DNA of 64,000 nucleotides from Patescibacteria group bacterium (GCA_019752125.1 JAIEMM010000006.1:6120-70119); one strand, 5' to 3'. Shown: positions 2,859-63,645, numbered from the stretch's first letter. The notes: generated by a model from the letters alone, not told the origin. Translations and numbers: made by a program.

Positions 2859-4008
2859 GAATAGTTTAGACCTCAATAATATTCTGCTTCCAAAAAAGGA
2901 CGCTCCTTCTGTCGACTCCGCTCAGCGTGTCGACGCAGGAACTCTCATGCAGCAGGAACAAGCGGCGACTCTTAAGCCCCCGGTTTCTTCTAGTGATTCT
3001 GTTTCACGCTCCTCTGTAACCCCTCCTCCGCAAGAAGGTATCGCCCCTTTGCAGACGTTTCAGGGTGATATCGCGAGCGCAATTGGGAACAAGGGCGTGT
3101 CCGTAGTCTCAATAGCTGCAGCAGAAGCTAATCGACGCGGAACACAACCTGTTTCACAAGACTCACAAATAACAAACACACCAGCGCCTCACACGCTTCG
3201 CAACATCGTCTTCGCACTTATTGGTCTGCTATTTGTAGCTGGCGCTGTCGGCGCTCTTGCCTACATTGTACTATCGAACGCACCGCTTCCGCAACAACAA
3301 GCTGGCGCTACACCGTTCATCTCAATCGACAACACGAATACAATTTCCGTAGAGCCAACTGTTAAAGCACCAGGTCTTATGCAACGGCTTGTTTCGGCAA
3401 AAAATTCGGTTTCGATTTCACTCGGATTAATTGCACAATTGTATGTGGAACAGACAGGAACAACCACCGCTGCAGAACCAACATATATGAGCGCCCAAAC
3501 GCTGCTCTCTACACTAGCCCCAGAACTGTCCGACACCTTCGTGCGCAATGTTTCACCAGTGTATCTTCTTGGCGTACATTCTTTCGGCGTGAATCAGCCG
3601 TTCCTAATTTTGAAAGTCGACTCGTACGAACAAGGGTACGCGGGCATGCTTGCGTGGGAGAAGGGAATAAAAAAAGATCTTGCGCCGCTCTTTACCTACG
3701 TGCCAGCTCCTAAGATTACGAAGCCTGCGCAGAACCCAATTGCAGTTGCAACTTCAACGACCGCTACCTCAACACCGAGCCTCGCCACCTCCACCCCAGA
3801 ACTTCCACCACTCCAAACCGGCTTCACGGACGCCGTAGTACAAAATCATGACGCAAGAGTTACAGTGGACCAGTATGGCACTGTTAATTTTCTGTGGACC
3901 TTCCTCGACAGGCAGACATTGGTTATAACCACAAACCCTGATACGTTGCGTGAAATTATCGCTCGCCTCAAACAGTCGCCCATCCTCTACAAGACAACTT
4001 CTCAATAA
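2836..4008 (+). CDS. hypothetical membrane-anchored protein (one TM, Ser/Thr/Pro-rich stretches)
   Basis: 390-aa ORF overlapping the pnp stop by 23 nt. One hydrophobic helix (IVFALIGLLFVAGAVGALAYIVL) and a low-complexity TSTTATSTPSLATSTP segment. No recognisable catalytic motif. Confidence 0.5.
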   Translation: MDQDQNSKNSLDLNNILLPKKDAPSVDSAQRVDAGTLMQQEQAATLKPPVSSSDSVSRSSVTPPPQEGIAPLQTFQGDIASAIGNKGVSVVSIAAAEANRRGTQPVSQDSQITNTPAPHTLRNIVFALIGLLFVAGAVGALAYIVLSNAPLPQQQAGATPFISIDNTNTISVEPTVKAPGLMQRLVSAKNSVSISLGLIAQLYVEQTGTTTAAEPTYMSAQTLLSTLAPELSDTFVRNVSPVYLLGVHSFGVNQPFLILKVDSYEQGYAGMLAWEKGIKKDLAPLFTYVPAPKITKPAQNPIAVATSTTATSTPSLATSTPELPPLQTGFTDAVVQNHDARVTVDQYGTVNFLWTFLDRQTLVITTNPDTLREIIARLKQSPILYKTTSQ

Positions 4009-4032: not shown

Positions 4033-4407
4033 ATGCTAGAAAACATTTCACATTTTAAACAAAAATTAGAAGACGAGTTGCTCGAGGTTGAAGATCGTTT
4101 GAAAGCAGCGGGCATGCAGAACGAAGCAGGTGAGTGGGAAGTGCGCGACACAGATATTGATGAAACTGCGACTGAGTCTGACGAACTTGGCGACCGCATG
4201 GAAGAATTCGGAGAAAAGAAAGCTGAGGTTGGTGAGATAGAAATCCATTGGCGCAATATTGAACGCGCGATTGAAAAAATTGAACTCGGAACATACGGCA
4301 CCTGCGAAGTATGCGGCGAAGAGATCGAAGAGAATCGTCTCGAAATAAATCCATCTGCTCGCACCTGCAAAACCCACATGGACGAAGAATCTGGGCTCCC
4401 AGCATAA
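4033..4407 (+). CDS. DksA/TraR-family C4 zinc-finger protein
   Basis: N-terminal coiled-coil then C-x2-C…C-x2-H (GTYGTCEVCGEEIEENRLEINPSARTCKTH), the TraR/DksA zinc-finger signature. Confidence 0.7.
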   Translation: MLENISHFKQKLEDELLEVEDRLKAAGMQNEAGEWEVRDTDIDETATESDELGDRMEEFGEKKAEVGEIEIHWRNIERAIEKIELGTYGTCEVCGEEIEENRLEINPSARTCKTHMDEESGLPA

Positions 4408-6682: not shown

Positions 6683-7750
6683 TTAGTTGCTGCTGCCAAC
6701 ACCGAGAGAAGCGAATGGGTTCTTAGCACCACGAACTTCGAAGTGGAGGTGGAAGCCGGTAGATTGGCCAGTAGAACCGACCTTGCCGATTACATCACCT
6801 TGGTCAACCTGGGATCCGGGCGAAGTAAGTACTTTACTCATGTGTGCGTACAGTGTTTGAGTGCCGTTTGAGTGTTGAATAACGACATAACTACCGTACC
6901 CACCATTCCATCCACCGTTGCCGTTTGCAACAATAACAGTACCTCCGGCTGCGGCGTAGATTGATGTTCCTTTAGGTGCGCCGATGTCGACGCCGTTCCA
7001 TCCGTGCAAACCTTGTGTGATGATGCCGTCTGCAACTGGCCATGCATAGTAGCCAGAGATAGCTGGGCCAGAGCCGCCAAGATACGGTTCTGTTGTTTTG
7101 CCGCTCGCAATATTTTTTATCTTAGTTGTATTTGAATTCGATTTGGTCGGAACCGGGGCCGAGAGTACTCCGTTTGGAATCAAAAGTACATCACCAACAG
7201 TAAGCGCTTGTCCGTCCGCCAAATCGTTATATGCCGCAATGCCGTGTGCATCAGAATTGTATTTTTTTGCAAGCGACGCCAGCGTCTCGCCTTTTACAAC
7301 GGTGTGTTGAATACCGGTAATAGGCAAGATAATGAGCGTCTGGCCCGGCTGGATTACGCCTTTTTTAATATCGTTTGCGCCCAAGATAGTGTTAGTCGAC
7401 ACATCAAACATGTCCGCGATGCTCGACAATGTATCGCCCTCGCGTACGGTATAGACGCTGATTTGCTGATTTGTTGGGAGGTTTTCTATATCCGCTGCCG
7501 TTCCAGAAGGCCCCTCCTGAGCGATAAGTGCCGAACCGTTAACCACTGTGATGCCACCACCTCCAACAGAAGGACTCGGGTCGAGGTTTACAGCTGGAGC
7601 AAGAAGGGTCATTCGCTGTGAGTTAGATGCTCCGCCCGCCGCACTGCTTACAGCAGCTGAGCTATTTAGAAGGGAAGAAAAAATACTAGCGGAGGCTAGT
7701 ATAGGCATACAAAAGACAAAAGATGCTCCGCTTAGGGCGAGGGCGATCAT
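6683..7750 (-). CDS. secreted peptidoglycan hydrolase with two LysM domains and a C-terminal M23 peptidase domain
   Basis: Signal peptide. Two LysM repeats (YTVREGDTLSSIADMF…, HTVVKGETLASLAKKY…). M23 signature (HGWNGVDIGAPKGT…GYGSYVVIQH…STGQSTGFHLHFEV). Confidence 0.85.
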   Translation of the reverse strand: MIALALSGASFVFCMPILASASIFSSLLNSSAAVSSAAGGASNSQRMTLLAPAVNLDPSPSVGGGGITVVNGSALIAQEGPSGTAADIENLPTNQQISVYTVREGDTLSSIADMFDVSTNTILGANDIKKGVIQPGQTLIILPITGIQHTVVKGETLASLAKKYNSDAHGIAAYNDLADGQALTVGDVLLIPNGVLSAPVPTKSNSNTTKIKNIASGKTTEPYLGGSGPAISGYYAWPVADGIITQGLHGWNGVDIGAPKGTSIYAAAGGTVIVANGNGGWNGGYGSYVVIQHSNGTQTLYAHMSKVLTSPGSQVDQGDVIGKVGSTGQSTGFHLHFEVRGAKNPFASLGVGSSN

Positions 7751-25790: not shown

Positions 25791-25948
25791 AGATAACTAG
25801 GACAATACCACAACTGATTTGATAAGGAAACCCCGCCAAGGTCGGACCTTGTCAAACCACGCTTATGCACAGTTCTTCCACAATGTTCTGCACATATAGT
25901 TTTTTTGACGGCAAGGTCGTGACCGCGTATTCTTACACCACTAACCCC

Positions 25949-27504: not shown

Positions 27505-28602
27505 ATGAAATTTGAGACCAGTACAACAGAATTTCTCTCCGCGGTGGGGACAGCAACACGTTTTGTTGAACGTCGTGCAAACCTCCCTGTACTCGCTGGT
27601 ATTTTGATGGTTGCAGAAGGTGGACGTCTGACGCTCAGGGCAACTAACCTTGAGTGTGGGGTTGAGATCACTGTGCCGGCAAAAATTGCAACTGAAGGTA
27701 TGGTTGTTGTACCAGCAGGAGTGTTGTCCGGATTTTTAAATACAGCGCGAGGTAAGACAGTTTCAATATCTCTTGTTGGTGAGGTGTGTAAGGTGGAGAC
27801 AGAGCGTGCCTCAGCATCAATCAAAACGCTCCCACACGAAGATTTTCCAGTACTCCCACGTGTGTCTGCAGAACGCTCGTTTACAGCAAAGAGTGCGGAC
27901 TTGGCACGAGCTATTCGCAGTGTTGCGTATTGTGCATCACTTTCTGCTACAAAACCTGAACTACAGAGTGTATTACTCAGCGCTGATGGTGGAAAACTTA
28001 CAGCGGCAGCAACAGACTCATTCCGCCTCGCAGAAAAGGTCGTACCTCTTCGTGGCAGTGCATCAACACCACAACTTTTAGTGCCTGCACGTAATGCGGC
28101 AGAGCTTATGCGTATTCTTGATACTGCGGGAGGTGAGGCAGAGATTTATTTCAACGAAAACCAACTCTCAACCCACGTAGGAACTATTTACTACACCAGC
28201 CGCGTTATTGACGCTGCGTTTCCTAACTACAAACAAATTATTCCAAAGACATTTGCAACAGAAGCGCTTGTACTACGAGAAGATCTTGCGGTGGCACTCA
28301 AGTCAATCAGTATTTTTGCAGATAAATTTTCACACGTGTCTGTTTCTCTCGACCCTGTGAAGAAAACTCTTACACTTACGTCTCGTAACCCAGATGTGGG
28401 GGAGCAAGTGTGCACCCTTAAGGCGACCATAAGTGGCGAACCCTTCACAATGTCCTTCAATGGCCGCTATCTTGCCGACAGCCTCCAGTCAGCCCAAGGA
28501 GAAAGCATCAAAATCCAGGCTAATGGCCCCGGTAAGGCTATCCTTATCCGCGATGCGGGCGATGACTCATTCTTCTACCTCGCAATGCCAATGAACCGCT
28601 AA
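27505..28602 (+). CDS. dnaN: DNA polymerase III beta sliding clamp
   Basis: 365 aa with the three-domain beta-clamp pattern. Located directly after dnaA. Confidence 0.9.
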   Translation: MKFETSTTEFLSAVGTATRFVERRANLPVLAGILMVAEGGRLTLRATNLECGVEITVPAKIATEGMVVVPAGVLSGFLNTARGKTVSISLVGEVCKVETERASASIKTLPHEDFPVLPRVSAERSFTAKSADLARAIRSVAYCASLSATKPELQSVLLSADGGKLTAAATDSFRLAEKVVPLRGSASTPQLLVPARNAAELMRILDTAGGEAEIYFNENQLSTHVGTIYYTSRVIDAAFPNYKQIIPKTFATEALVLREDLAVALKSISIFADKFSHVSVSLDPVKKTLTLTSRNPDVGEQVCTLKATISGEPFTMSFNGRYLADSLQSAQGESIKIQANGPGKAILIRDAGDDSFFYLAMPMNR

Positions 28603-29138
28603 TGGCGCTCTACTTCATTACAGGAAGTAAAAACAAAGTCGCTGAGGTTCAGTCAGTGCTGCCTGACATAGAGCAGATGGAAATTAATCTGCCGGAAGTA
28701 CAGGAGCTCGACCCACATACAATACTTGCAGCAAAACTCGCTGAAGCACAAAAACACCATAAGGGAGAATTCATCGTCGAAGACACATCTCTTTATTTTG
28801 AAGGAATGAATGGCTTGCCGGGGCCTTTTGTTAAATGGTTTTTCGAAGCACTGGGTGCGGGAGGGTTAGCCTCCCTCGCAGAGTTCTATGGAGGGAAGGC
28901 GACTGCAAAAACTTTGATTGGGTATGCTGACGAAAAGGGCGAGGTGCAATTTTTTGAAGGGGAGATGAAAGGAATGATAGTGCAACCTAGGACCCCAAGC
29001 GGCTTTGGGTGGGACAATATTTTTGTACCAGAAGGCTACGATAAAACCTTTGGAGAACTCGGACCTGAAATAAAAAATACTATCAGCATGCGTGTCCAAG
29101 CTGCGCGAAAGCTCAAAGAGTATTTAGATACGAAATAA
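28602..29138 (+). CDS. rdgB: non-canonical purine NTP pyrophosphatase (RdgB/Ham1 family)
   Basis: FITGSKNKVAEV N-terminus and the Ham1 motifs (EDTSLYF…GLPGPFVKWF…FGWDNIFVP). Start overlaps the dnaN stop. Confidence 0.85.
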   Translation: MALYFITGSKNKVAEVQSVLPDIEQMEINLPEVQELDPHTILAAKLAEAQKHHKGEFIVEDTSLYFEGMNGLPGPFVKWFFEALGAGGLASLAEFYGGKATAKTLIGYADEKGEVQFFEGEMKGMIVQPRTPSGFGWDNIFVPEGYDKTFGELGPEIKNTISMRVQAARKLKEYLDTK

Positions 29139-29179
29139 AATTAGGCGAGGTCCGACCTCGCCTAATTTTTACTGCGTAG
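29139..29179 (+). repeat. 36-nt hairpin-containing repeat, copy 1 (also an rdgB terminator: aattaggcgagg-tccga-cctcgcctaatt + TTTTT, then actgcgtag)
   Basis: 12-bp stem with a 5-nt loop immediately after the rdgB stop, followed by a T-run. The unit ggcgaggtccgacctcgccTaattTttactgcgtag recurs 554 bp downstream. Confidence 0.7.
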
Positions 29180-29228
29180 AAATAAAAAGCCCAACGGATT
29201 GCTCCGTGGGCTCGTGGAATGTAGGGCT

Positions 29229-29630
29229 TCAGTGAAGCTGGACTTCAGCGGCGGCATAGGCGCGAGCCAGAGCGTCCGTGTAGGAAATTGGAGCTTCACC
29301 GCGTGCGCCGTATATCATGTGCGCGTCGGCGGAATCTTCGTCCGGCCGCCAGAACTTCCAGACGAAGGTCCGAGCGATCTCTGAATTCGGGTGCGCTTCC
29401 CTGATTCGTTCCCAGACCTGCACGAGGCGCTGGCCGGGCACAGAGCGCTCGTCGAACGGCAACGGCAGAAAGTTCGACATGATGCCGCCCTTGAGCGCGA
29501 TGTTCTCCAAGGTCTGGCAGAGTTCGAGGTCTGTACCGGCAATGACGGCCCATAAGACCCGTCCGACTTTGTGATCACACCACCCCAGAACCTGGTTGGC
29601 AGAAACGCATAGCTTCGACAACTCTTGCAT
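29229..29630 (-). CDS. hypothetical 133-aa protein encoded in GC-rich cassette
   Basis: ORF 29229..29786 trimmed to the internal Met at 29630. That Met has a perfect AGGAGG Shine–Dalgarno 7 nt upstream (…accaggaggcaagccATG). The longer N-terminal extension would read through the hairpin repeat and overlap the PBP gene. Local GC is about 60% against about 48% in the surroundings. Confidence 0.5.
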   Translation of the reverse strand: MQELSKLCVSANQVLGWCDHKVGRVLWAVIAGTDLELCQTLENIALKGGIMSNFLPLPFDERSVPGQRLVQVWERIREAHPNSEIARTFVWKFWRPDEDSADAHMIYGARGEAPISYTDALARAYAAAEVQLH

Positions 29631-29691
29631 GGCTTGCCTCCTGGTTATACAGCCACAGGCACAGTACCATAGCTCCAAAAAATATCTAGCT

Positions 29692-29733
29692 ATGATGGGC
29701 GAGGTCCGACCTCGCCCAATTGTTACTGCGTAG
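29692..29733 (+). repeat. 36-nt hairpin-containing repeat, copy 2 (34/36 identical to copy 1; contains last two codons and stop of PBP gene)
   Basis: gggcgagg-tccga-cctcgccCaattGttactgcgtag. The PBP1A gene on the minus strand ends …TQ* inside the ttactgcgtag part. Confidence 0.7.
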
Positions 29734-31825
29734 GGGCAGAGGCGCCGCCGTGGGAGGCGAGCCATTGCTGGACTGAGTAGTCCCAACGGGTGAACTGAGG
29801 GTCATTGGCAGGGTTTGAAGGCTGTGGGCCGTTTGGATTGTCTTTATCTACCCAGTAGAGGATCTCGTGAAGCTGGCCATCACTACCTGGTATCTGCCAC
29901 TGGCCGCGAAGAACTGGCTTAAGGCCACTTTGGTCAACTTCTGTGCGAGTAAATGACACAGTAGGGAGTTTCTGCAGGGCATAAGCCATAAACTCATTCC
30001 ACATAGGACCTACGATAAAGCCTGAAACCTTGCGCACCATAGGGGTATTGTCATTGTTCCCAACCCACATACCTACGACGAGATTTGGTGTATAGCCGAT
30101 AGTCCATGCGTCTTTATAGTCGTTTGTAGTACCTGTTTTAACTGCTACATCGTGCCCAGGGAAGGTGAAGAGATTGTTCTCGCCAAGTGGAGAGCGTGCA
30201 ACAGGGTCTGAAAGGATGTCATTTATTTCCCGAGCAACAGAAGACTCTAATACCTGTGTGCCTGCAGTTTGTGCGTTATCTTCAATCACATTTCCGTTTG
30301 CGTCCTCGATCTTCATAACGCTTATTGGTTGATATTTCACACCATCGGTTGCGAACACCCCGTACGCACTCGACATATCAAGAAGCGTTGCTTCGCCGCC
30401 GCCGAGTACCAGCGTAAGTCCATATTGGTTTGCGTTGCTAAGTGTCGAGATGCCCATAGATTTTGCGAGCTCTAAGCTATTATTGATCCCCGCAAGATAG
30501 AGGGCTTTGATAGCAGGAACGTTGATCGACTGTGCAAGGGCGTCACGTAGAGTCATAGGCCCACGGAACTTGCCGTCATAGTTGTCAGGAGAATAACACG
30601 GCGCAGTTTTGTTTCCTGTATCATACGCAGAGCATGAGGTAGAGAATTGTGTCTGAGTATCAAACACCACTGTGTCGGGTGTGTACCCCTCTTCAAATGC
30701 TTTGGCGTATACAAAAGGTTTAAATGCAGAACCCGGCTGGCGCTGTGCCAACGTAACGTTAAAGTTGCCGCCGATCTCTGTGTCGAAGTAATTACGAGAC
30801 CCAACCATTACAAGAATTTGTCCGTTCGTAGGGTCAAGCGCGATCATGCCGGCATTTGAAGCGTTAAAGTTTGTCTGCTGTGTTGCTGCACGTGCTTGCA
30901 CAACTTCTTCTGCTTTCTGCTGCAAGTCTGCGTCGAGTGTGGTTGTAACCTTCCACCCGCCCTGTTCTGCGGCCTCAGGGCCGTATTTTTGTTCAAGATA
31001 TTGTTGAACATAAAAGACAAAGTGTGGTGCGGAAATAGAAGATGTGCGCTGAGGAACGAACGTAACAACTTCTTTTTCTGCCGCAACTCTCTGTTCTGCC
31101 GTTAGATAGCCATGCTCCTCCATCTTCTCAAGCACCAAATTCTTTCTCGCGTCCAACAGGTCTTTATGGTTTCCATATGGAGAGAAACGAGACGGCGCAG
31201 GCAAAACCGCAGCAAGATATGCGGCTTCAGCAACATCAACATCACTCGCATGTTTCCCAAAGAATGTCTGTGCCGCCTGTTCAACACCATAAATATTTCC
31301 TCCGTACGGTGCGTGGTTAAGGTACAGCTCTAAGATTTGTGACTTAGTGAGTGAGCGTTCTATCTTAAGGGACAGAAGCCACTCTTCGATTTTGCGGATA
31401 GGACTTTTTGCACCCGTAAGAAGTGTAAGTTTGACTACTTGCTGGGTGATGGTTGATCCGCCTTGTGAAGCGGATAGAGTAAGAATGTCCACCATGATTG
31501 CGCGGGCGATAGCTCTAAATTCGATCCCAGGATGTTGGTAGAAGTTTGGATCCTCAATAGAGAGGGTGGCGTTCTGGATGTTCTGGCTTACGGAAGAAAG
31601 GGGGACGACTGTTCTGTTCGTGTTGTTGTTGAGGCTGTAGAGCAGCACGGTGCCAGTGCGGTCATAGATTTTGGTTGATTGTTCAACCTTGCGCGACTCA
31701 AGAGAGGCGAGGTCTGGCACTTTTAGACTAGAAGCCCATAGAAAAATGATGCCAAGCAAAAAGAACCCTAAACCGAAGAGCCAGACGAGGGTTACACGCC
31801 AATGCTTTCGCAAATAACGCCACAT
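29723..31825 (-). CDS. class A penicillin-binding protein (PBP1A-type transglycosylase/transpeptidase)
   Basis: N-terminal TM. GT51 motifs (…SIEDPNFYQHPGIEFRAI…GGSTITQQVVK…). Transpeptidase SxxK (SAFKPF), SxN and KTG(T) (KTGTTND). Confidence 0.9.
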   Translation of the reverse strand: MWRYLRKHWRVTLVWLFGLGFFLLGIIFLWASSLKVPDLASLESRKVEQSTKIYDRTGTVLLYSLNNNTNRTVVPLSSVSQNIQNATLSIEDPNFYQHPGIEFRAIARAIMVDILTLSASQGGSTITQQVVKLTLLTGAKSPIRKIEEWLLSLKIERSLTKSQILELYLNHAPYGGNIYGVEQAAQTFFGKHASDVDVAEAAYLAAVLPAPSRFSPYGNHKDLLDARKNLVLEKMEEHGYLTAEQRVAAEKEVVTFVPQRTSSISAPHFVFYVQQYLEQKYGPEAAEQGGWKVTTTLDADLQQKAEEVVQARAATQQTNFNASNAGMIALDPTNGQILVMVGSRNYFDTEIGGNFNVTLAQRQPGSAFKPFVYAKAFEEGYTPDTVVFDTQTQFSTSCSAYDTGNKTAPCYSPDNYDGKFRGPMTLRDALAQSINVPAIKALYLAGINNSLELAKSMGISTLSNANQYGLTLVLGGGEATLLDMSSAYGVFATDGVKYQPISVMKIEDANGNVIEDNAQTAGTQVLESSVAREINDILSDPVARSPLGENNLFTFPGHDVAVKTGTTNDYKDAWTIGYTPNLVVGMWVGNNDNTPMVRKVSGFIVGPMWNEFMAYALQKLPTVSFTRTEVDQSGLKPVLRGQWQIPGSDGQLHEILYWVDKDNPNGPQPSNPANDPQFTRWDYSVQQWLASHGGASAPTQ

Positions 31826-37728: not shown

Positions 37729-37831
37729 ATCTATATTCTACAACGAAGTTCTTACCGAGGACTGTCCTCGGCGTCAGAAATCTTATTTCAGTTTTAAATA
37801 AATTTTATCAATTCTGCTACACTACCCAAAT

Positions 37832-38275
37832 ATGAAGGTGAAAAGGGAGGGGTTATCAAAAATTGCTCAAGAAGTATTAAAAGAAGCTTCCATGGCGAGG
37901 TCCGACCTTGCCAGCCGCGCTGTTATTGTTGCCTTGAGGGGGGACTTAGGTGCAGGAAAGACAACCTTTACTCAGGCTCTTGCGAGGGAGTTGGGCATTG
38001 AAGATGCAGTGCAAAGTCCTACCTATGTTTTGATGAAATCGTACCCGATTAATTTTGAGGGTTTCAAAAAACTCATCCACATAGACGCATACCGTCTCGA
38101 CAAACCAGAAGAATTTTCTGCACTTGCGCCAGACACCTTTTTACATGATTCAGAAAATCTCGTAGTAATAGAGTGGCCAGAGAGGGTAGAGAGCGTTCTT
38201 CCAACCCCAGACCTCCTTTTAAATTTCAAACATACAGATTCAGAAGAGGAGCGACATATAGAGATAGAAAAATAA
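37832..38275 (+). CDS. tsaE: tRNA threonylcarbamoyladenosine biosynthesis protein TsaE
   Basis: P-loop (RGDLGAGKTTFTQALAREL) and the conserved (…PTYVLMKSY…IHIDAYRL…) blocks. 147 aa. Confidence 0.8.
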   Translation: MKVKREGLSKIAQEVLKEASMARSDLASRAVIVALRGDLGAGKTTFTQALARELGIEDAVQSPTYVLMKSYPINFEGFKKLIHIDAYRLDKPEEFSALAPDTFLHDSENLVVIEWPERVESVLPTPDLLLNFKHTDSEEERHIEIEK

Positions 38276-46563: not shown

Positions 46564-46582
46564 GCCGACTTTTTCAGTCGGC
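46564..46582. terminator. hairpin (gccgact-ttttc-agtcggc) acting as terminator for the minus-strand gene and after the response regulator
   Basis: 7-bp perfect stem. On the minus strand it is followed by GTTTTTCTTT. Confidence 0.5.
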
Positions 46583-47428
46583 GGCTGTCCGTTGAGGGAC
46601 GTTTTGTACTTCTGCTTCAGGTTCTTCCGGCGGCCAGTGCTCCGAAGGTGGAAGCTCTACCTTGTAATGCTTACAGAGCGTCCTAAGCTCCACAAGTTGC
46701 CTCTTTTCCAGCTCGCCGGCCTGCTTGCTACTCCTAGTGACTCCGTATCTGAGAACGGATGACAGCTTACGGTTTGCGTATAGGCAGCTCGTGTGATGGA
46801 AATTAATGAGCTTAGCGATAGTCGGCAAGTTGCAGCCTGTGTTACGCAACACGAAGTAGATGATCACTTGCCGAGGTCCTGAGATCCTCGACATGCGTTG
46901 GTTGCTAAGAAGGTCCTCCATTTTTAGACCTAGGAGGGAGGCGGAAGCTTCCACGATGTGCTGAGGGTTCAAGTGTGCGAGCGGAGGGTTGCCCGTTATG
47001 TTCGCCTCTGTCGTGGACGACAGTGTCCCAGGGATAGGGAACCTTGTCTGGATAGCCGAGTGGTTCCACTGTGATGGCTTGGGGGCACTCCTAACACCAT
47101 CGAGTGCGAGTGGGCGCAGTGGGAGAGTACTTTGTCCGACCTTCGCTTTCCCTTGCGACTCCTTCCGCTTCTTCTCGTCTTCAGCTTTCTTTGCCGCCAA
47201 TATGTTCGGGTTAACGTATGAACCTCCGACATACGGCGGCAACTCGGTTGTCCCTCGTGGGAACATTTCCTTGAGTCGATCCGTGCCTGTCATCTCCTTC
47301 TTCGGTTGGGCCTGAGGAGCGGGAGTGGTCGTAGTGCCGTTATCTACCGTTGAGGTCATTTCTGCTCTCCACGTTGCTGTGTTTGGTACCAACTGCCCAC
47401 ACAATACTGTTGCGCCCCAATTTTGCAA
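46574..47428 (-). CDS. orphan protein with DnaA C-terminal-like helix-turn-helix domain
   Basis: The C-terminal ~70 aa (…MSRISGPRQVIIYFVLRNTGCNLPTIAKLINFHHTSCLYANRKL…) parallel the DnaA domain IV in this window (VVRPRQVIMFLLRE…TIGEKLGGRDHTTVIHSCEKI). The N-terminal 200 aa are hydrophilic and low-complexity. There is no AAA+ domain. Confidence 0.55.
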   Translation of the reverse strand: MQNWGATVLCGQLVPNTATWRAEMTSTVDNGTTTTPAPQAQPKKEMTGTDRLKEMFPRGTTELPPYVGGSYVNPNILAAKKAEDEKKRKESQGKAKVGQSTLPLRPLALDGVRSAPKPSQWNHSAIQTRFPIPGTLSSTTEANITGNPPLAHLNPQHIVEASASLLGLKMEDLLSNQRMSRISGPRQVIIYFVLRNTGCNLPTIAKLINFHHTSCLYANRKLSSVLRYGVTRSSKQAGELEKRQLVELRTLCKHYKVELPPSEHWPPEEPEAEVQNVPQRTAAD

Positions 47429-50100: not shown

Positions 50101-51264
50101 TTGCCCATGAGTGTTGATAAAAAGACGAAAACAGTTAGATTGGGAGATATTGCCGAGGTAATCCCTGGGTACGCTTTTAAGAGTACAGATTTTGTCGAAA
50201 CTAAAGGAGTTCCAGTAATTAAGATAAAAAACATTACCAATGATTACCGGGTTTCAATAGACGATGTAATTTACATTCCAGAATCCTTGCTTACCAAAAA
50301 ACTTGAAAAGTTTATTGTGATTAAAGATGATTTTTTGGTTGCAATGACTGGCGCTACAGCGGGAAAGATGGGAAGGGTATTTCCTAAGACCAAAGCTGTG
50401 TTAAACCAGCGTGTTGCTAAAATTCAACCAAAAAATATCGATAAGGAGTATCTATGGTCTTTGTTGGCGCGTGAAGATTTTACTCAAAAACTATACAAGT
50501 TAGCCGATGGCGCGGCTCAACCAAATATGAGTGGTTCTCAGATAGAGAACGTGCTGCTTGAAATTTTACCACCAGAAACTCAAGCTAAGATTGGAGCAAT
50601 TCTTTCTTCCCTAAATCAAAAAATCGAGCTCAATCGGAAAATGAACAAAACCCTGGAGGAAATGGGTCAGGCGCTTTTTAAGCATTACTTTATAGACAAT
50701 CCAGATGCGAAAGGATGGGAAAAGAAATCGATTAAAGAGTTCGCGACAATTCAATATGGATATGCTTTTAAATCAAATTTATTTAATGAAAACGCAGAAG
50801 GGCAAAAGATAATACGAATCAGAAATATAAGGGATGGAGATTCAGGGTCTTATACGACTGAGCAAGCTGACTCGAGTTACTTAGTCAAAAATGGAGACGT
50901 ACTTGTTGGAATGGACGGAGACTTTCATATCAATTATTGGGGAGGTGGAGATGCATATCTAGTGCAACGCGTAGCACGATTCAGGGCAAAAGAAAGCTAC
51001 TCAAATGTTTTTGTAAAAAACATTCTAATGGATCCAATTGCTATTTTTGATAAGCGTGAGGCAAGAACCACTGTTGCACACTTGAGTGCGAAAGAGATAA
51101 ATGAGATATCTTTACCTTTTGACGTGGGTGTATACGATAATTTGTCCGGTAGCTTCGAGTATATCTTTAAGAACCATTTTCTTTTGAATAGAGAAATACG
51201 TATTTTAACGAATATGCGAGATTCGCTTCTTCCGCGTTTAATGTCTGGAAAAATTCAGGTATGA
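50101..51264 (+). CDS. hsdS: type I restriction–modification system specificity subunit
   Basis: Two target-recognition-domain halves separated by the conserved central repeat (…LPPETQAKIGAILSSLNQKIELNRKMNKTLEEMGQALFK…), with the motif repeated at the C-terminus (…LLPRLMSGKI). Confidence 0.85.
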   Translation: MPMSVDKKTKTVRLGDIAEVIPGYAFKSTDFVETKGVPVIKIKNITNDYRVSIDDVIYIPESLLTKKLEKFIVIKDDFLVAMTGATAGKMGRVFPKTKAVLNQRVAKIQPKNIDKEYLWSLLAREDFTQKLYKLADGAAQPNMSGSQIENVLLEILPPETQAKIGAILSSLNQKIELNRKMNKTLEEMGQALFKHYFIDNPDAKGWEKKSIKEFATIQYGYAFKSNLFNENAEGQKIIRIRNIRDGDSGSYTTEQADSSYLVKNGDVLVGMDGDFHINYWGGGDAYLVQRVARFRAKESYSNVFVKNILMDPIAIFDKREARTTVAHLSAKEINEISLPFDVGVYDNLSGSFEYIFKNHFLLNREIRILTNMRDSLLPRLMSGKIQV

Positions 51265-52277
51265 GAAATAACATTAAAGTTATTTTTGATACAAATTTGT
51301 TACGATCTGAACCCGAGCGAGCAGTCTTCTTCGGCTTCCGCTCAGATCTAGAGAAGTTTGCGGCAATTGCTGAAATAGTTGTTCCCGACATGGTTATCGA
51401 TGAGATAAAATGTCAGAAGCGAGAACATTTTACTAGTAAAAGAGACGCGTTTGCTAGTAACCCATTTCACGATATTTTTTCACTTGATAAATCGAGTACA
51501 AAATTTTTTGACGTGCATACACATGTTAATGGTATATATGCTCAGGAACCAATTTCTCATTCTGTTATATATCTAACAAAGCCTGATGCGCTCGAAAGAA
51601 TTAAAGAGCTTTGCAATAAACGCTTACCACCATTCGAAAGCGGAGGGGATAAGGGTTTTAAAGATGCTTATATTTATTTGACTGTTCTTGAATATTTGGA
51701 AGGAATTACGGATGAACAAGTATTTTTTGTTTCAGGCGATGGGAAGCTCAAGGAAGCTATTAAACAGCTTAAGGGCATCATAATTGTTTCTAATTTTGAA
51801 GAGTTTGAAGAATTTAATATCTCAGTATTTAAAGAGGAATATTTCATAAATAAATTAAAAGAAGAAATTTCTGACCAGATCACTCCCGAAAGTATAGTCG
51901 ATGTTTCTTCAAATATAGATGGGAATTGGATACTTAAGATTGACGGTGTGGAATATGTTGATCGAATACTCGTTGATTTTAAATCTAGAGAAATTCTGGA
52001 CCCTCGAGGTGATTTTGATCCATTTCTGAATCGACTAATTAATGCCGGAAGTTTTCAAACAGTTCACGAGATGATTGGAGAATTAACCCATTATAGAGGT
52101 TTTTTCTCAGATAAAGAGGTTTTGAAGTTATTAAGTTCAGCGATAACTAATGATCAGATCTATCAAATTGCCCAAGATGAAGATGTTCGTGCATTTTTTC
52201 TAGATCTGTATAGTATCAAGAAACAACTCTTGAACACCGAAGAACAAGAAGAATTTGAAGCTTATTTTCTAAAGTAA
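51261..52277 (+). CDS. PIN-like domain protein embedded between hsdS and hsdR (AT-rich)
   Basis: N-terminal (KVIFDTNLL) is the hallmark first strand and Asp of PIN nucleases. Further acidic positions follow (MVIDEIK, GGDKGFKDAYIY, FFVSGDGK). About 35% GC against about 50% in hsdR. The start ATG overlaps the hsdS stop (ATGA), and hsdR starts 4 nt after its stop. Confidence 0.5.
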   Translation: MRNNIKVIFDTNLLRSEPERAVFFGFRSDLEKFAAIAEIVVPDMVIDEIKCQKREHFTSKRDAFASNPFHDIFSLDKSSTKFFDVHTHVNGIYAQEPISHSVIYLTKPDALERIKELCNKRLPPFESGGDKGFKDAYIYLTVLEYLEGITDEQVFFVSGDGKLKEAIKQLKGIIIVSNFEEFEEFNISVFKEEYFINKLKEEISDQITPESIVDVSSNIDGNWILKIDGVEYVDRILVDFKSREILDPRGDFDPFLNRLINAGSFQTVHEMIGELTHYRGFFSDKEVLKLLSSAITNDQIYQIAQDEDVRAFFLDLYSIKKQLLNTEEQEEFEAYFLK

Positions 52278-58138: not shown

Positions 58139-58210
58139 GCCCCTGTAGTTAAACGGATATAACTGCGGACTTCTAAGCCGCTATTCGAGGTTCGATTCCT
58201 CGCGGGGGCA
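58139..58210 (+). tRNA. tRNA-Arg (anticodon TCT)
   Basis: Acceptor gcccctg/cgggggc (one G·U), D-arm gtta-aacggata-taac, anticodon loop cTTCTaa, T-arm cgagg-ttcgatt-cctcg, discriminator A. Confidence 0.8.
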
Positions 58211-58460
58211 CAAAAAGAAAAGCGACTCGGGAGAGTCGCTTGGTGGAGCTAGTTGGGCACCCGCGCGTAGGCTTGCTCATGCGTTGCGGGCTTACCATTG
58301 CAGTGGGGCACCTTCACGCGTCCGAAGTTCCTGAGCTCGCATCCAGGCCGTAGGACCTCATTGTCTCCCGACATTGGTCCGAGTGTCATAAGGCCGATGC
58401 CTAATAGGCAGGATCCAACAAGAATTATTAAAGGACTAGGAAACATCTCTTTCTCTCGTG

Positions 58461-58835
58461 TTACGGTGCGACCCAGTTCGCGAGGACGATGATGATGAAC
58501 CCGCGAGGGCCTGTCGCCGTCAGAACATCCCAGCCCTTACGCCACTTCACTCGGTGCTCGGCCTGGGTGGGGTACTGCGACGCCGGGATGCTGTCGATCA
58601 GCTTCTGCGCCACCTCTTCGCTCGAGAGCGGCTTGGAGAGATGGTGCTCGTGCGCAGCGAAGGCGGTCGACGCATAGAGTACGCTTCCCGTAATGGGTGC
58701 CTGTTCGATGGGCTCCAGTGCATGGAAGTACATGGAGTAGCCCTGCTTGGCCCTTTCCAGCAGTTCGGTAAGGCACCAGGTGTCGGCCGCGCTCCCGACC
58801 ATCTTCGACCCAGCAGGTAGTCGTTCGTAGTGCAT
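58461..58835 (-). CDS. hypothetical 124-aa protein in GC-rich islet next to tRNA-Arg(TCT)
   Basis: Longest of several overlapping ORFs in a ~60% GC stretch (58230-58860). No recognisable motif. The printed text and the ORF-track frame differ by 1 nt in this stretch. Confidence 0.3.
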   Translation of the reverse strand: MHYERLPAGSKMVGSAADTWCLTELLERAKQGYSMYFHALEPIEQAPITGSVLYASTAFAAHEHHLSKPLSSEEVAQKLIDSIPASQYPTQAEHRVKWRKGWDVLTATGPRGFIIIVLANWVAP

Positions 58836-62809: not shown

Positions 62810-62893
62810 GCCCAGGTGGCGAAATTGGTAGACGCACTACCTTGAGGTGGTAGCCCCCGCAAGGGGTTGGAGGTTCGAGTCCTCTCCTGGGCA
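62810..62893 (+). tRNA. tRNA-Leu (anticodon GAG), long variable arm
   Basis: Acceptor gcccagg/cctgggc, D-loop with GG, anticodon loop cTTGAGGt read as U33-GAG, variable stem-loop gtagcccccgcaaggggtt, T-arm ggagg-ttcgagt-cctct, discriminator A. Confidence 0.85.
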
Positions 62894-63078
62894 CAACAAA
62901 CGAAAAACTAGGCATTACCGTCACCCAGAGGCAGCCAAAGAGGACTCCTCGAACTCGGATGCCTAATCATGGACACCCAATGCTATTTATGGTTGAGTGT
63001 CCACAGACACCTCTCCTGTTCGGAGGGACCCCCGCCACATAATTATATGGTTGGGTCTTCCCGCAACAGGAGGGCCGC

Positions 63079-63645
63079 ATGCCCAGCATCATAAAGTTCA
63101 AGGATTTCGTGAGCATCAGCGGAGACACTCTCACTATCGATCCCGGACTGAAGCCGAAGCCAGACATCGGCGTCCAAGTTCTCTTCAGGTTCGCGTTCAG
63201 GGGGGATGTGATCAGGCATCTCGTCGGCGATGCGTCGCTCTTGAATAATTGGGACACCGAACCAACTCCGTACGACGCTGAAATGGAATCCTACCTCAGC
63301 GGCCTCTGCAATCTTGGCGACAGCCGTGGCGAACAGATTAATCTCGAGCGTCTCAGTCTAGGTGACACCGTCGTCGAGCTTCGCCTCGACCGCCTCGCCA
63401 AGATTCTATTCGGCCACGAGGAGAACTGGATGGAGGGCATCGACAACGTCTTCATTAGAGCAGCCATGAAGACGCTCGTCGAGACACACACCGTGACCGC
63501 AGCGATCGATAGGACTGCTGACGGGGTCGGCATCATGGTCGTCTTCAAAAAGCTCAACGAGGTCAAGTTCTCCTTCCTCTTCGAGATCGACCGAGCTGCT
63601 GCCGAGAAGATCTTCATGTTCCAGGATGTCGAGAGTGTCGTCTGA
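63079..63645 (+). CDS. hypothetical protein (GC-richer, after tRNA-Leu)
   Basis: 188-aa ORF at about 56% GC. No recognisable motif. A strong terminator follows. Confidence 0.45.
   Translation: MPSIIKFKDFVSISGDTLTIDPGLKPKPDIGVQVLFRFAFRGDVIRHLVGDASLLNNWDTEPTPYDAEMESYLSGLCNLGDSRGEQINLERLSLGDTVVELRLDRLAKILFGHEENWMEGIDNVFIRAAMKTLVETHTVTAAIDRTADGVGIMVVFKKLNEVKFSFLFEIDRAAAEKIFMFQDVESVV

Follow-up and report, generated by a model that had tools for sequence, protein, structure and literature searches.

Hairpin-containing direct repeats bracket an orphan gene in the rdgB/PBP1A junction of a Patescibacteria genome

Results

Direct repeats and hairpins at the junction

The DNA analysed here, a 64,000-nucleotide stretch referred to below as the window, comes from a Patescibacteria metagenome-assembled genome (MAG). 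Its NCBI protein names read "Patescibacteria group bacterium", and the closest relative of its PBP1A-family penicillin-binding protein (PBP) belongs to Candidatus Adlerbacteria RIFOXYC1_FULL_48_26 (92% identity). The locus under study is the junction between two convergent genes, rdgB on the plus strand and the PBP1A gene on the minus strand, whose stop codons lie 584 nt apart. In this gap, two direct repeat units, each with a hairpin, bracket 518 nt that hold one GC-rich gene, called the cargo gene here. The neighbouring genes are those for the RNase P protein, dnaA, dnaN, rdgB, PBP1A and tyrS. Coordinates of all features are collected in Table 1.

The repeat unit, GGCGAGGTCCGACCTCGCC[T/C]AATT[T/G]TTACTGCGTAG, is 36 nt long, and its two copies have the same orientation, a spacing of 554 nt and 34 of 36 positions in common, as an earlier note made from the sequence alone had reported. 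The longest exact stretch common to both copies is 19 nt. Leaving the tRNAs aside, this pair is the top direct repeat of the window, and the chance expectation for such pairs in 64 kb is about 2.8e-9. No further repeat copies were found near the two, no terminal inverted repeats at the ends of the 518-nt cargo, and no Rfam match in 28900-29900.

The hairpin core consists of 9-nt arms and one central base and folds as 8 bp with a 3-nt loop. The hairpin described in the earlier note is present, but its stem is stronger than the 7 bp (12 bp in copy 1) given there, as the arms reach 16 nt in copy 1 and the stem extends to 10 bp in copy 2 (29696-29718). Folding energies of both hairpins are -23 to -25 kcal/mol (z -3.3 to -5.6), with -23.8/-23.9 kcal/mol and a z of about -5.5 for copy 1. 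Also in line with the earlier description, copy 1 stands directly after the rdgB stop codon, the final bases of which are used by the palindrome, is followed by a T-run, and scores terminator-like, resembling a terminator on either strand. As had been observed, the final two codons of PBP1A and its stop fall within copy 2, together with 2 nt more; on the PBP1A strand this copy has no T-tract, which makes it a poor terminator there. Copy 1 has both outer arms (AATTA...TAATT), and copy 2 begins exactly at the hairpin foot. The GTAG found in each unit (29176-29179 and 29730-29733) belongs to the PBP1A coding sequence, at a distance of 13 nt from the stem.

The junction was compared across 80 Patescibacteria PBP loci (~0.9 Mb), and the convergence of PBP1A and rdgB is kept in only three of them. 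In L004, whose PBP1A is 92% identical, the spacer is 2 nt; in L005 the two stop codons overlap (-4 nt); L001 has a 302-nt spacer with an unrelated small membrane open reading frame (ORF). Given relatives' spacers of 2, -4 and 302 nt, the 584-nt spacer is a lineage-specific insertion. The foreign single-gene insertion suggested by the earlier note is thus borne out by two relatives essentially without a spacer, a third with a different small gene, and the foreign composition of the insert. The tight spacers also imply that the ancestral junction was tight and that the gap was invaded more than once, so that it appears to be a recurrent landing site. The L001 gap (7086-7387) encodes a hydrophobic protein of ~54 aa (MLHWALVFLVVALVAATFGFGP...).

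The PBP1A of L004 ends with ...CCTACGCAGTAG, and the PBP1A tail CTACGCAGTA is present there and hence ancestral. The 11 nt TTACTGCGTAG are therefore the target sequence and the copy beside hairpin 1 is the duplicate, which upholds, for this part, the target duplication proposed before. None of the 41 metagenome loci with the hairpin described below carries the 17-nt flank of this locus beside it, which indicates that the duplication was made in situ and is not an element-borne attachment site. No closer strain with an intermediate state was found, RdgB, PBP1A and TsaE all being singleton clusters at 90% identity.

The cargo gene and its protein family

The minus-strand ORF between the repeats is a real gene, as had been proposed, because its homologues reach E = 4e-26; only the spacing between AGGAGG and ATG had to be corrected, from 7 to 6 nt. 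A full HMMER search of 1.84 billion representatives returned 16 distant homologues (E 4e-26 to 3e-5). In a word-indexed protein search the cargo protein matched only itself, and an exact-protein look-up gave no match. The ORF has a GC content of 0.595 and a GC content at third codon positions (GC3) of 0.716, against 0.476 and 0.462 +/- 0.077 in 44 host ORFs (GC3 z ~3.3). The GC-rich character noted earlier thus stands, with the stated 60% slightly high: the value over 518 nt is 0.569, and the non-coding parts of the insert, at 0.46-0.51, are host-like. A promoter scan found no sigma-70-like site between the Shine-Dalgarno sequence of the cargo gene and copy 2. Transcription would probably occur by read-through from PBP1A, the likeliest source because the ORF and PBP1A share a strand on which copy 2 has no T-tract.

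The homology and structure checks proposed for the 133-aa product place it in a rare family with a confidently predicted fold. The family shares the motifs FLPLPFTxDSxxGxRL and FxWKFWxPxxDxxDA, and AlphaFold (AF2) with the family alignment predicts an alpha-rich fold with few short strands (pLDDT 93.7, pTM 0.85). Neither the cargo protein nor any of the 17 family members matched Pfam, NCBIfam, PHROGs or PADLOC, a PDB sequence-profile search with the family gave no match, and no Foldseek hit of the predicted fold in PDB or BFVD reached an E of 1 or lower. The homologues occur in other Patescibacteria contigs, one of them annotated as Adlerbacteria; they are solitary genes in varied housekeeping neighbourhoods of small genomes, with mildly raised GC3, and two lie directly after tRNA genes. 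No conserved gene partner was found, and the upstream ORFs in L081 and L086 are unrelated. In the best reading of these data, the cargo is a horizontally acquired member of a rare, uncharacterised protein family, and it is most likely an accessory or "hitch-hiker" protein that acts on its own.

A dispersed hairpin family and its Y1 transposase neighbours

Within the window, the 13-nt core pattern GAGG[AT]CNG[AT]CCTC occurs three times against 0.01 expected, and copies or variants of the hairpin start at five places (25835, 29144, 29698, 37755 and 37894). An exact search of JGI metagenomes with the 19-mer returned 41 stretches. As to the dispersal question raised in the earlier note, the hairpin is therefore not a private terminator of this locus. 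About 25 of the exact matches lie in contigs with a GC content of at least 0.57 and are plausibly chance or coding matches. In the ~11 distinct low-GC loci, the hairpin is intergenic, its flanks are unrelated, and there are often several copies, including compensated variants such as GACGAGG...CCTCGTC, GGTGAGG...CCTCACC and CCCGAGG...CCTCGGG. The hairpin is absent from viral contigs.

In four of the ~11 low-GC loci (L109, L118/L123, L125 and L129), the hairpin lies 3-61 nt from a gene with the Pfam Y1_Tnp domain. The Pfam scores of these proteins are 25-46 bits against a cut-off of 23, and HYH/HIH/HFH and YIxxNP-type motifs are visible in the sequences. The best NCBIfam match of all four is the repetitive extragenic palindrome (REP)-associated tyrosine transposase (RAYT) NF047646, with 34-50 bits for three and 16.5 bits (E = 0.0058) for L125, below the 80-bit cut-off. 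In L125 the Y1 gene stands between inverted hairpin copies identical at 22 of 22 positions, and in L129 hairpin variants flank the Y1 catalytic core; the distance from hairpin to Y1 gene is 8-61 nt in L129, L109 and L118/L123. The occurrence of the identical hairpin beside IS200/RAYT-like Y1 transposase genes of other contigs supports the earlier idea of a REP-associated insertion. Two Parcubacteria loci, L054 and L045, have homologous Y1 genes that are flanked by palindromes of their own.

Two of these loci show further details. The compensated variants of L129 (CCCGAGGTCGGACCTCGGG; 3736-3767 and 4273-4304) fall inside the longest ORF with the Y1 domain, so that the hairpins are translated unless the true gene is shorter. 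In L123 (1236-1283 and 1909-1956) and L118 (963-1010 and 1636-1683), the Y1 gene is flanked by a different 48-nt repeat with the hairpin CACCCTTGCAGGG...CCCTGCAAGGGTG; the GGCGAGGTC hairpin lies just outside this repeat, which gives two hairpin families at one REPtron-like locus.

Accessory genes are bracketed by the hairpin elsewhere too. In L091, a YafQ-type toxin-antitoxin pair lies between 62-nt direct repeats with the identical hairpin and is followed by a nucleotidyltransferase gene. In L111, a methyltransferase and a YafQ/RelB pair are separated by hairpins at 137, 1033 and 1684, and L122 and L119 have similar hairpin-bracketed cassettes. The architecture seen in the window is therefore not unique.

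The family consensus is T-GGCGAGGTC-[C/G]-GACCTCGCC-A. The hairpin is under structural selection: over 26 copies, both partners vary in 8 of the 10 stem pairs and 96.7% of cells are paired, which none of 500 shuffles reached, the variants having been found by their similarity to the palindrome and the figures thus carrying an ascertainment bias. The third copy in the window lies in frame in tsaE. A tsaE relative at 84% identity (L133 586-598) retains the palindrome GCGAGGTC-G-GACCTCGC, one at 83% (L130 5596-5608) has CAGAGGAC-T-GTCCTCTG with full compensation, and in more distant TsaE proteins this spot either lacks an insert or holds a different one. The variant palindrome at 37755, ~120 nt upstream of the in-frame copy, brackets the start of tsaE together with it and is also found in the relative L133 (476-488). 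The degenerate member at 25835, identical in L004 (10391-10409), may be a conserved element of the origin or of the dnaA promoter region.

Table 1. Position of the repeats, hairpins and genes in the window
Feature	Position	Strand	Remarks
Degenerate member of the hairpin family, GACAAGGTCCGACCTTGGC	25835-25853	-	Just upstream of dnaA
dnaA	25865-27295		Upstream of the studied region
dnaN	27505-28602		Upstream of the studied region
rdgB/Ham1-type non-canonical purine NTP pyrophosphatase	28602-29138	+	Pfam Ham1p_like, E = 5.9e-39; NCBI name; left flank
Hairpin copy 1, full 33-nt perfect palindrome, AAAATTA-GGCGAGGTC-C-GACCTCGCC-TAATTTT	29137-29169		16-nt arms, 100% complementary
Direct-repeat unit 1	29144-29179	+	Hairpin core 29144-29162, 6-nt linker, 11-nt duplicate of the PBP1A 3' end (TTACTGCGTAG)
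Intrinsic terminator of the cargo gene, GC stem-loop GAGCCCACGGAGCAATCCGTTGGGC then TTTTTATTT	29187-29213	-	-17.7 kcal/mol, z -3.5
Cargo gene, 133 aa, NCBI hypothetical protein K2Q00_01615	29229-29630	-	Rare unannotated family
Shine-Dalgarno sequence AGGAGG	29637-29642	-	6 nt before ATG
Direct-repeat unit 2	29698-29733	+	Hairpin core 29698-29716, linker CAATTG, genuine last 11 nt of PBP1A including the stop
PBP1A-family penicillin-binding protein	29723-31825	-	Pfam Transgly and Transpeptidase; NCBI name; right flank, cargo strand
Variant palindrome CCGAGGAC-T-GTCCTCGG	37755-37771		Gap between the type II secretion system/type IV pilus (T2SS/T4P) ATPase gene and tsaE; core matches the in-frame tsaE palindrome of L130
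Third hairpin copy, 18/19	37894-37912	+	In frame in tsaE (37832-38275), encodes MARSDLA, N-terminal linker

Other features of the window

Several other regions of the window are atypical in composition. Genes for a type I restriction-modification specificity subunit and for a PIN_12-domain protein lie in a low-GC island (0.33-0.40) at 50101-52277. A second GC-rich patch (58250-58835, 0.61 over 400 nt) directly follows tRNA-Arg(tct) (58139-58211); with two minus-strand ORFs (124 and 65 aa) that have no Pfam match, it looks like a small foreign insert. The highest GC3 of the window (0.741) is that of a 188-aa ORF at 63079-63645 without a Pfam or NCBIfam match, ~185 nt after tRNA-Leu (62810-62894). 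Neither this ORF nor the GC-rich ORF at 58461-58835 is related to the cargo family. The sole recognisable domain of a 284-aa protein at 46574-47428 (minus strand, GC3 raised to 0.60) is a DnaA C-terminal helix-turn-helix, and its N-terminal half is of low complexity. Although some Y1 transposase subclasses carry this DnaA C-terminal domain, the protein lacks an HUH motif and was discarded as a RAYT candidate.

Discussion

The explanation that we favour, with about even confidence, is that REP-type palindromes bracket a horizontally captured orphan gene, a hairpin having been resident at the junction before a capture that duplicated part of the target. A complete REP of 29-33 nt would first have settled in the tight rdgB/PBP1A junction and acted there as a bidirectional terminator. 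The gene would then have been captured at the resident hairpin, with duplication of a segment that starts at the hairpin foot and takes in 17 nt past the hairpin, either through a staggered break or through cut-and-join by a hairpin-specific single-strand nuclease or transposase acting in trans. Such a duplication would have re-made the last 11 nt of PBP1A with its stop codon. From the presence of both arms in copy 1 and the start of copy 2 at the foot, it seems that the junction already had a complete unit when 29144-29179 was duplicated; this order of events, like the enzyme and the function of the cargo, is what we infer. The different repeat lengths here (36 nt) and in L091 (62 nt) argue against a transposase with a fixed stagger and fit cuts at a variable distance from the hairpin, of the kind that TnpA-REP makes in vitro (PMC8266576). 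In the best-supported picture, copy 1 today terminates transcription in both directions, that of rdgB and that of the cargo gene.

The closest known systems are the REPs with their RAYT/TnpA-REP enzymes (REPtrons), in particular group 3, where, as in Stenotrophomonas, a perfect stem of 8 bp carries a 3-nt loop (PMC8266576, PMC3333891, PMC6006769, PMC3733652). The hallmarks of REPs and RAYTs (PMC3333891, PMC6006769, PMC8266576) and the occasional intragenic copies (PMC3733652) have parallels here in the short perfect palindrome with a stem of 8-9 bp, the compensatory evolution of the stem, the copies at the 3' ends of convergent and tandem genes, and the occasional in-frame copies. A Y1 HUH transposase gene flanked by inverted palindrome copies, as in REPtrons, is seen in other contigs only (L125). 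Unlike REPs, the present family shows only T-hairpin-A(G) over the flanks of 14 copies and has no GT[AG]G or CGTC foot, and unlike RAYTs, the hairpin-associated Y1 proteins score below the NCBIfam RAYT cut-off. Since the canonical GT[AG]G foot is absent, we call the hairpin "REP-type" and do not assign it to a described REP family. Two same-orientation copies with 17 nt of duplicated flank around a captured gene are likewise an arrangement not described for REPs, REPINs or BIMEs, and no report of REPs in Patescibacteria was found in the literature searched.

The locus resembles IS200/IS605 elements and their non-autonomous derivatives, which move as single strands by "peel and paste" transposition, in the same-orientation end hairpins, in the lack of terminal inverted repeats and in the transposase relatives that lie beside the hairpin elsewhere. 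Those elements make no target duplication and have distinct left and right hairpins, whereas here the hairpins are identical, 36 nt are duplicated, and there is no tnpA or tnpB inside, the only ORF being the 133-aa orphan. In Rickettsia palindromic elements and intragenic REPs, as in the essential gene tsaE, an in-frame palindrome is tolerated; here it sits in a permissive N-terminal linker and is conserved in relatives. The tsaE palindrome, at 19-21 nt (6-7 codons), is, however, much shorter, and the likeness does not extend to the cassette. A cut-and-paste transposon or a miniature inverted-repeat transposable element was rejected, as terminal inverted repeats are lacking and 36 nt are duplicated, to our knowledge far more than in known target-site duplications. 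A CRISPR array was rejected because there are two copies 554 nt apart instead of at least three repeats with 25-50-nt spacers, and a Cas1-type repeat duplication was rejected on architecture.

Integron cassettes share with this locus a single ORF of ~0.5 kb that has no promoter and lies between hairpin-forming repeats, and in L091 and L111 the hairpin separates toxin-antitoxin and other accessory cassettes in the manner of chromosomal integron arrays. An integron attC site measures ~55-140 nt, has R''-L''/L'-R' arms as well as extrahelical bases, and contains a GTTRRRY core. At 19-33 nt, the hairpin falls far short of this length and is perfectly paired, and the GTTACTG in the repeat does not fit GTTRRRY, for which reasons an integron attC was rejected. 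There is no integrase, attI or Pc nearby, and the enzyme found with the hairpin elsewhere is an HUH Y1 transposase and not a tyrosine recombinase. The integron-type insertion that the earlier note had also considered is therefore not upheld, in view of the short perfect palindrome without attC-like architecture, the housekeeping neighbours and the single cassette.

Several results weigh against the explanation that we favour. The closest relatives have no hairpin at the junction, so that a REP resident before the gene, like the shared terminator that the earlier note presumes there, is something we infer solely from the complete 33-nt palindrome of copy 1, and the 13-nt core is absent from the 80 Patescibacteria PBP loci. 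With about five copies or variants in 64 kb, a high copy number in the genome is unproven. No Y1 transposase gene was found in the 64-kb window by tblastn, the canonical foot is missing, and the covariation carries the bias noted above. We know of no Y1 enzyme that produces a 36-nt target duplication. Finally, no hairpin or direct repeat flanks the homologues of the cargo gene, which means that this gene family travels independently of the hairpin.

This last point also speaks for a course of events that we consider rather unlikely, in which the gene was the first to arrive, through illegitimate recombination or another unrelated route, a REP landed at the PBP1A stop and was later copied with its 17-nt flank across the gene, and the hairpins played no part in the capture. 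REPs are known to gather where convergent or tandem ORFs end, within ~20 bp of the 3' end (PMC3733652), and the dinucleotides at which TnpA-REP cuts in vitro lie at variable positions on the 5' and 3' sides of the hairpin (PMC8266576), so that flanking sequence could be co-mobilised; the variation of repeat length between this locus and L091 suits such a course as well. It would nevertheless require three independent events in one 584-nt gap, and the left arm of copy 1, which lies outside the duplicated segment and is absent in copy 2, indicates that copy 2 derives from a unit of the copy 1 type and not the reverse. Ordinary, immobile intrinsic terminators are a decidedly unlikely alternative; the repeat would then be a slippage or repair duplication formed when foreign DNA was patched in, and the likeness to other loci would be convergence on a good GC stem. 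Convergence would not be expected to give an identical 19-mer in ~11 unrelated low-GC loci, often in several copies, and Y1 transposase genes adjoin the hairpin in four of these. Copies also occur within coding sequence (tsaE and L129) with compensatory changes, and copy 2 is without a T-tract on the PBP1A strand. This alternative draws on the canonical terminator features of copy 1 on both strands, the terminator that the cargo gene has of its own, the few copies in 64 kb and the ~25 exact matches at high GC that are plausibly chance or coding.

It is very improbable that the insert is a miniature integrative cassette, that is, a 554-nt circle with a 36-nt attachment site moved in trans by a tyrosine or serine recombinase (integron- or Xer-like), with the repeats as attL and attR. 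A promoterless single gene between direct repeats and the reconstituted 3' end of the target gene would agree with it, and both mismatches lie together in the PBP1A-side copy, as if a crossover had taken place in the last 11 nt. However, the circle would have to carry the PBP1A tail, and the 17-nt flank is found by the hairpin in no other contig. The perfect palindrome has no attC-type bulges, GTTRRRY cores or dif-like half-sites, and dif/Xer modules were rejected on architecture. There is only one cassette, and no integrase is among the neighbour genes dnaA, dnaN, rdgB, PBP1A and tyrS, the window as a whole not having been scanned protein by protein for recombinases. We regard an assembly artefact, in which a GC-rich fragment of another organism was spliced in at a shared repeat, as extremely improbable, even though the sequence comes from a MAG, the GC content of the cargo is atypical and several community members carry the hairpin. 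The longest exact stretch shared by the repeats, 19 nt, is below the usual k-mers of assemblers, and two perfectly placed joins restoring both gene ends would be needed. The host-like GC content of the non-coding parts of the insert, the host-style Shine-Dalgarno sequence and terminator of the cargo gene, and its homologues in other Patescibacteria contigs, including an Adlerbacteria contig, speak against an artefact as well.

A wider proposal, which we think unlikely, is that in some Patescibacteria the REP-type hairpins and a RAYT-like Y1 (HUH) enzyme form a gene-capture or cassette-shuffling system, a single-strand-DNA analogue of the integron. Under such a system, the orphan gene, the toxin-antitoxin pairs and the methylases would have been inserted at resident hairpins with duplication of hairpin and flank, and the hairpins would afterwards serve as terminators or insulators.

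REPs and RAYTs are seen chiefly as a trait of Proteobacteria and a small number of other phyla, and there is no agreed mechanism for their dissemination. A REP-like family in the ultra-small, recombination-poor genomes of Patescibacteria would widen the range of REP/RAYT systems. With no GTAG foot, tolerated in-frame copies and accessory cassettes repeatedly bracketed, the hairpin family would offer compact natural substrates for the study of Y1-mediated DNA movement. The rare protein family defined by the cargo gene has a fold that is predicted with confidence and is unmatched in PDB and BFVD; the cargo is a candidate for structural and functional work. If the hairpins truly mediate capture, they would represent a new route of gene gain in genomes that are poor in classical mobile elements.

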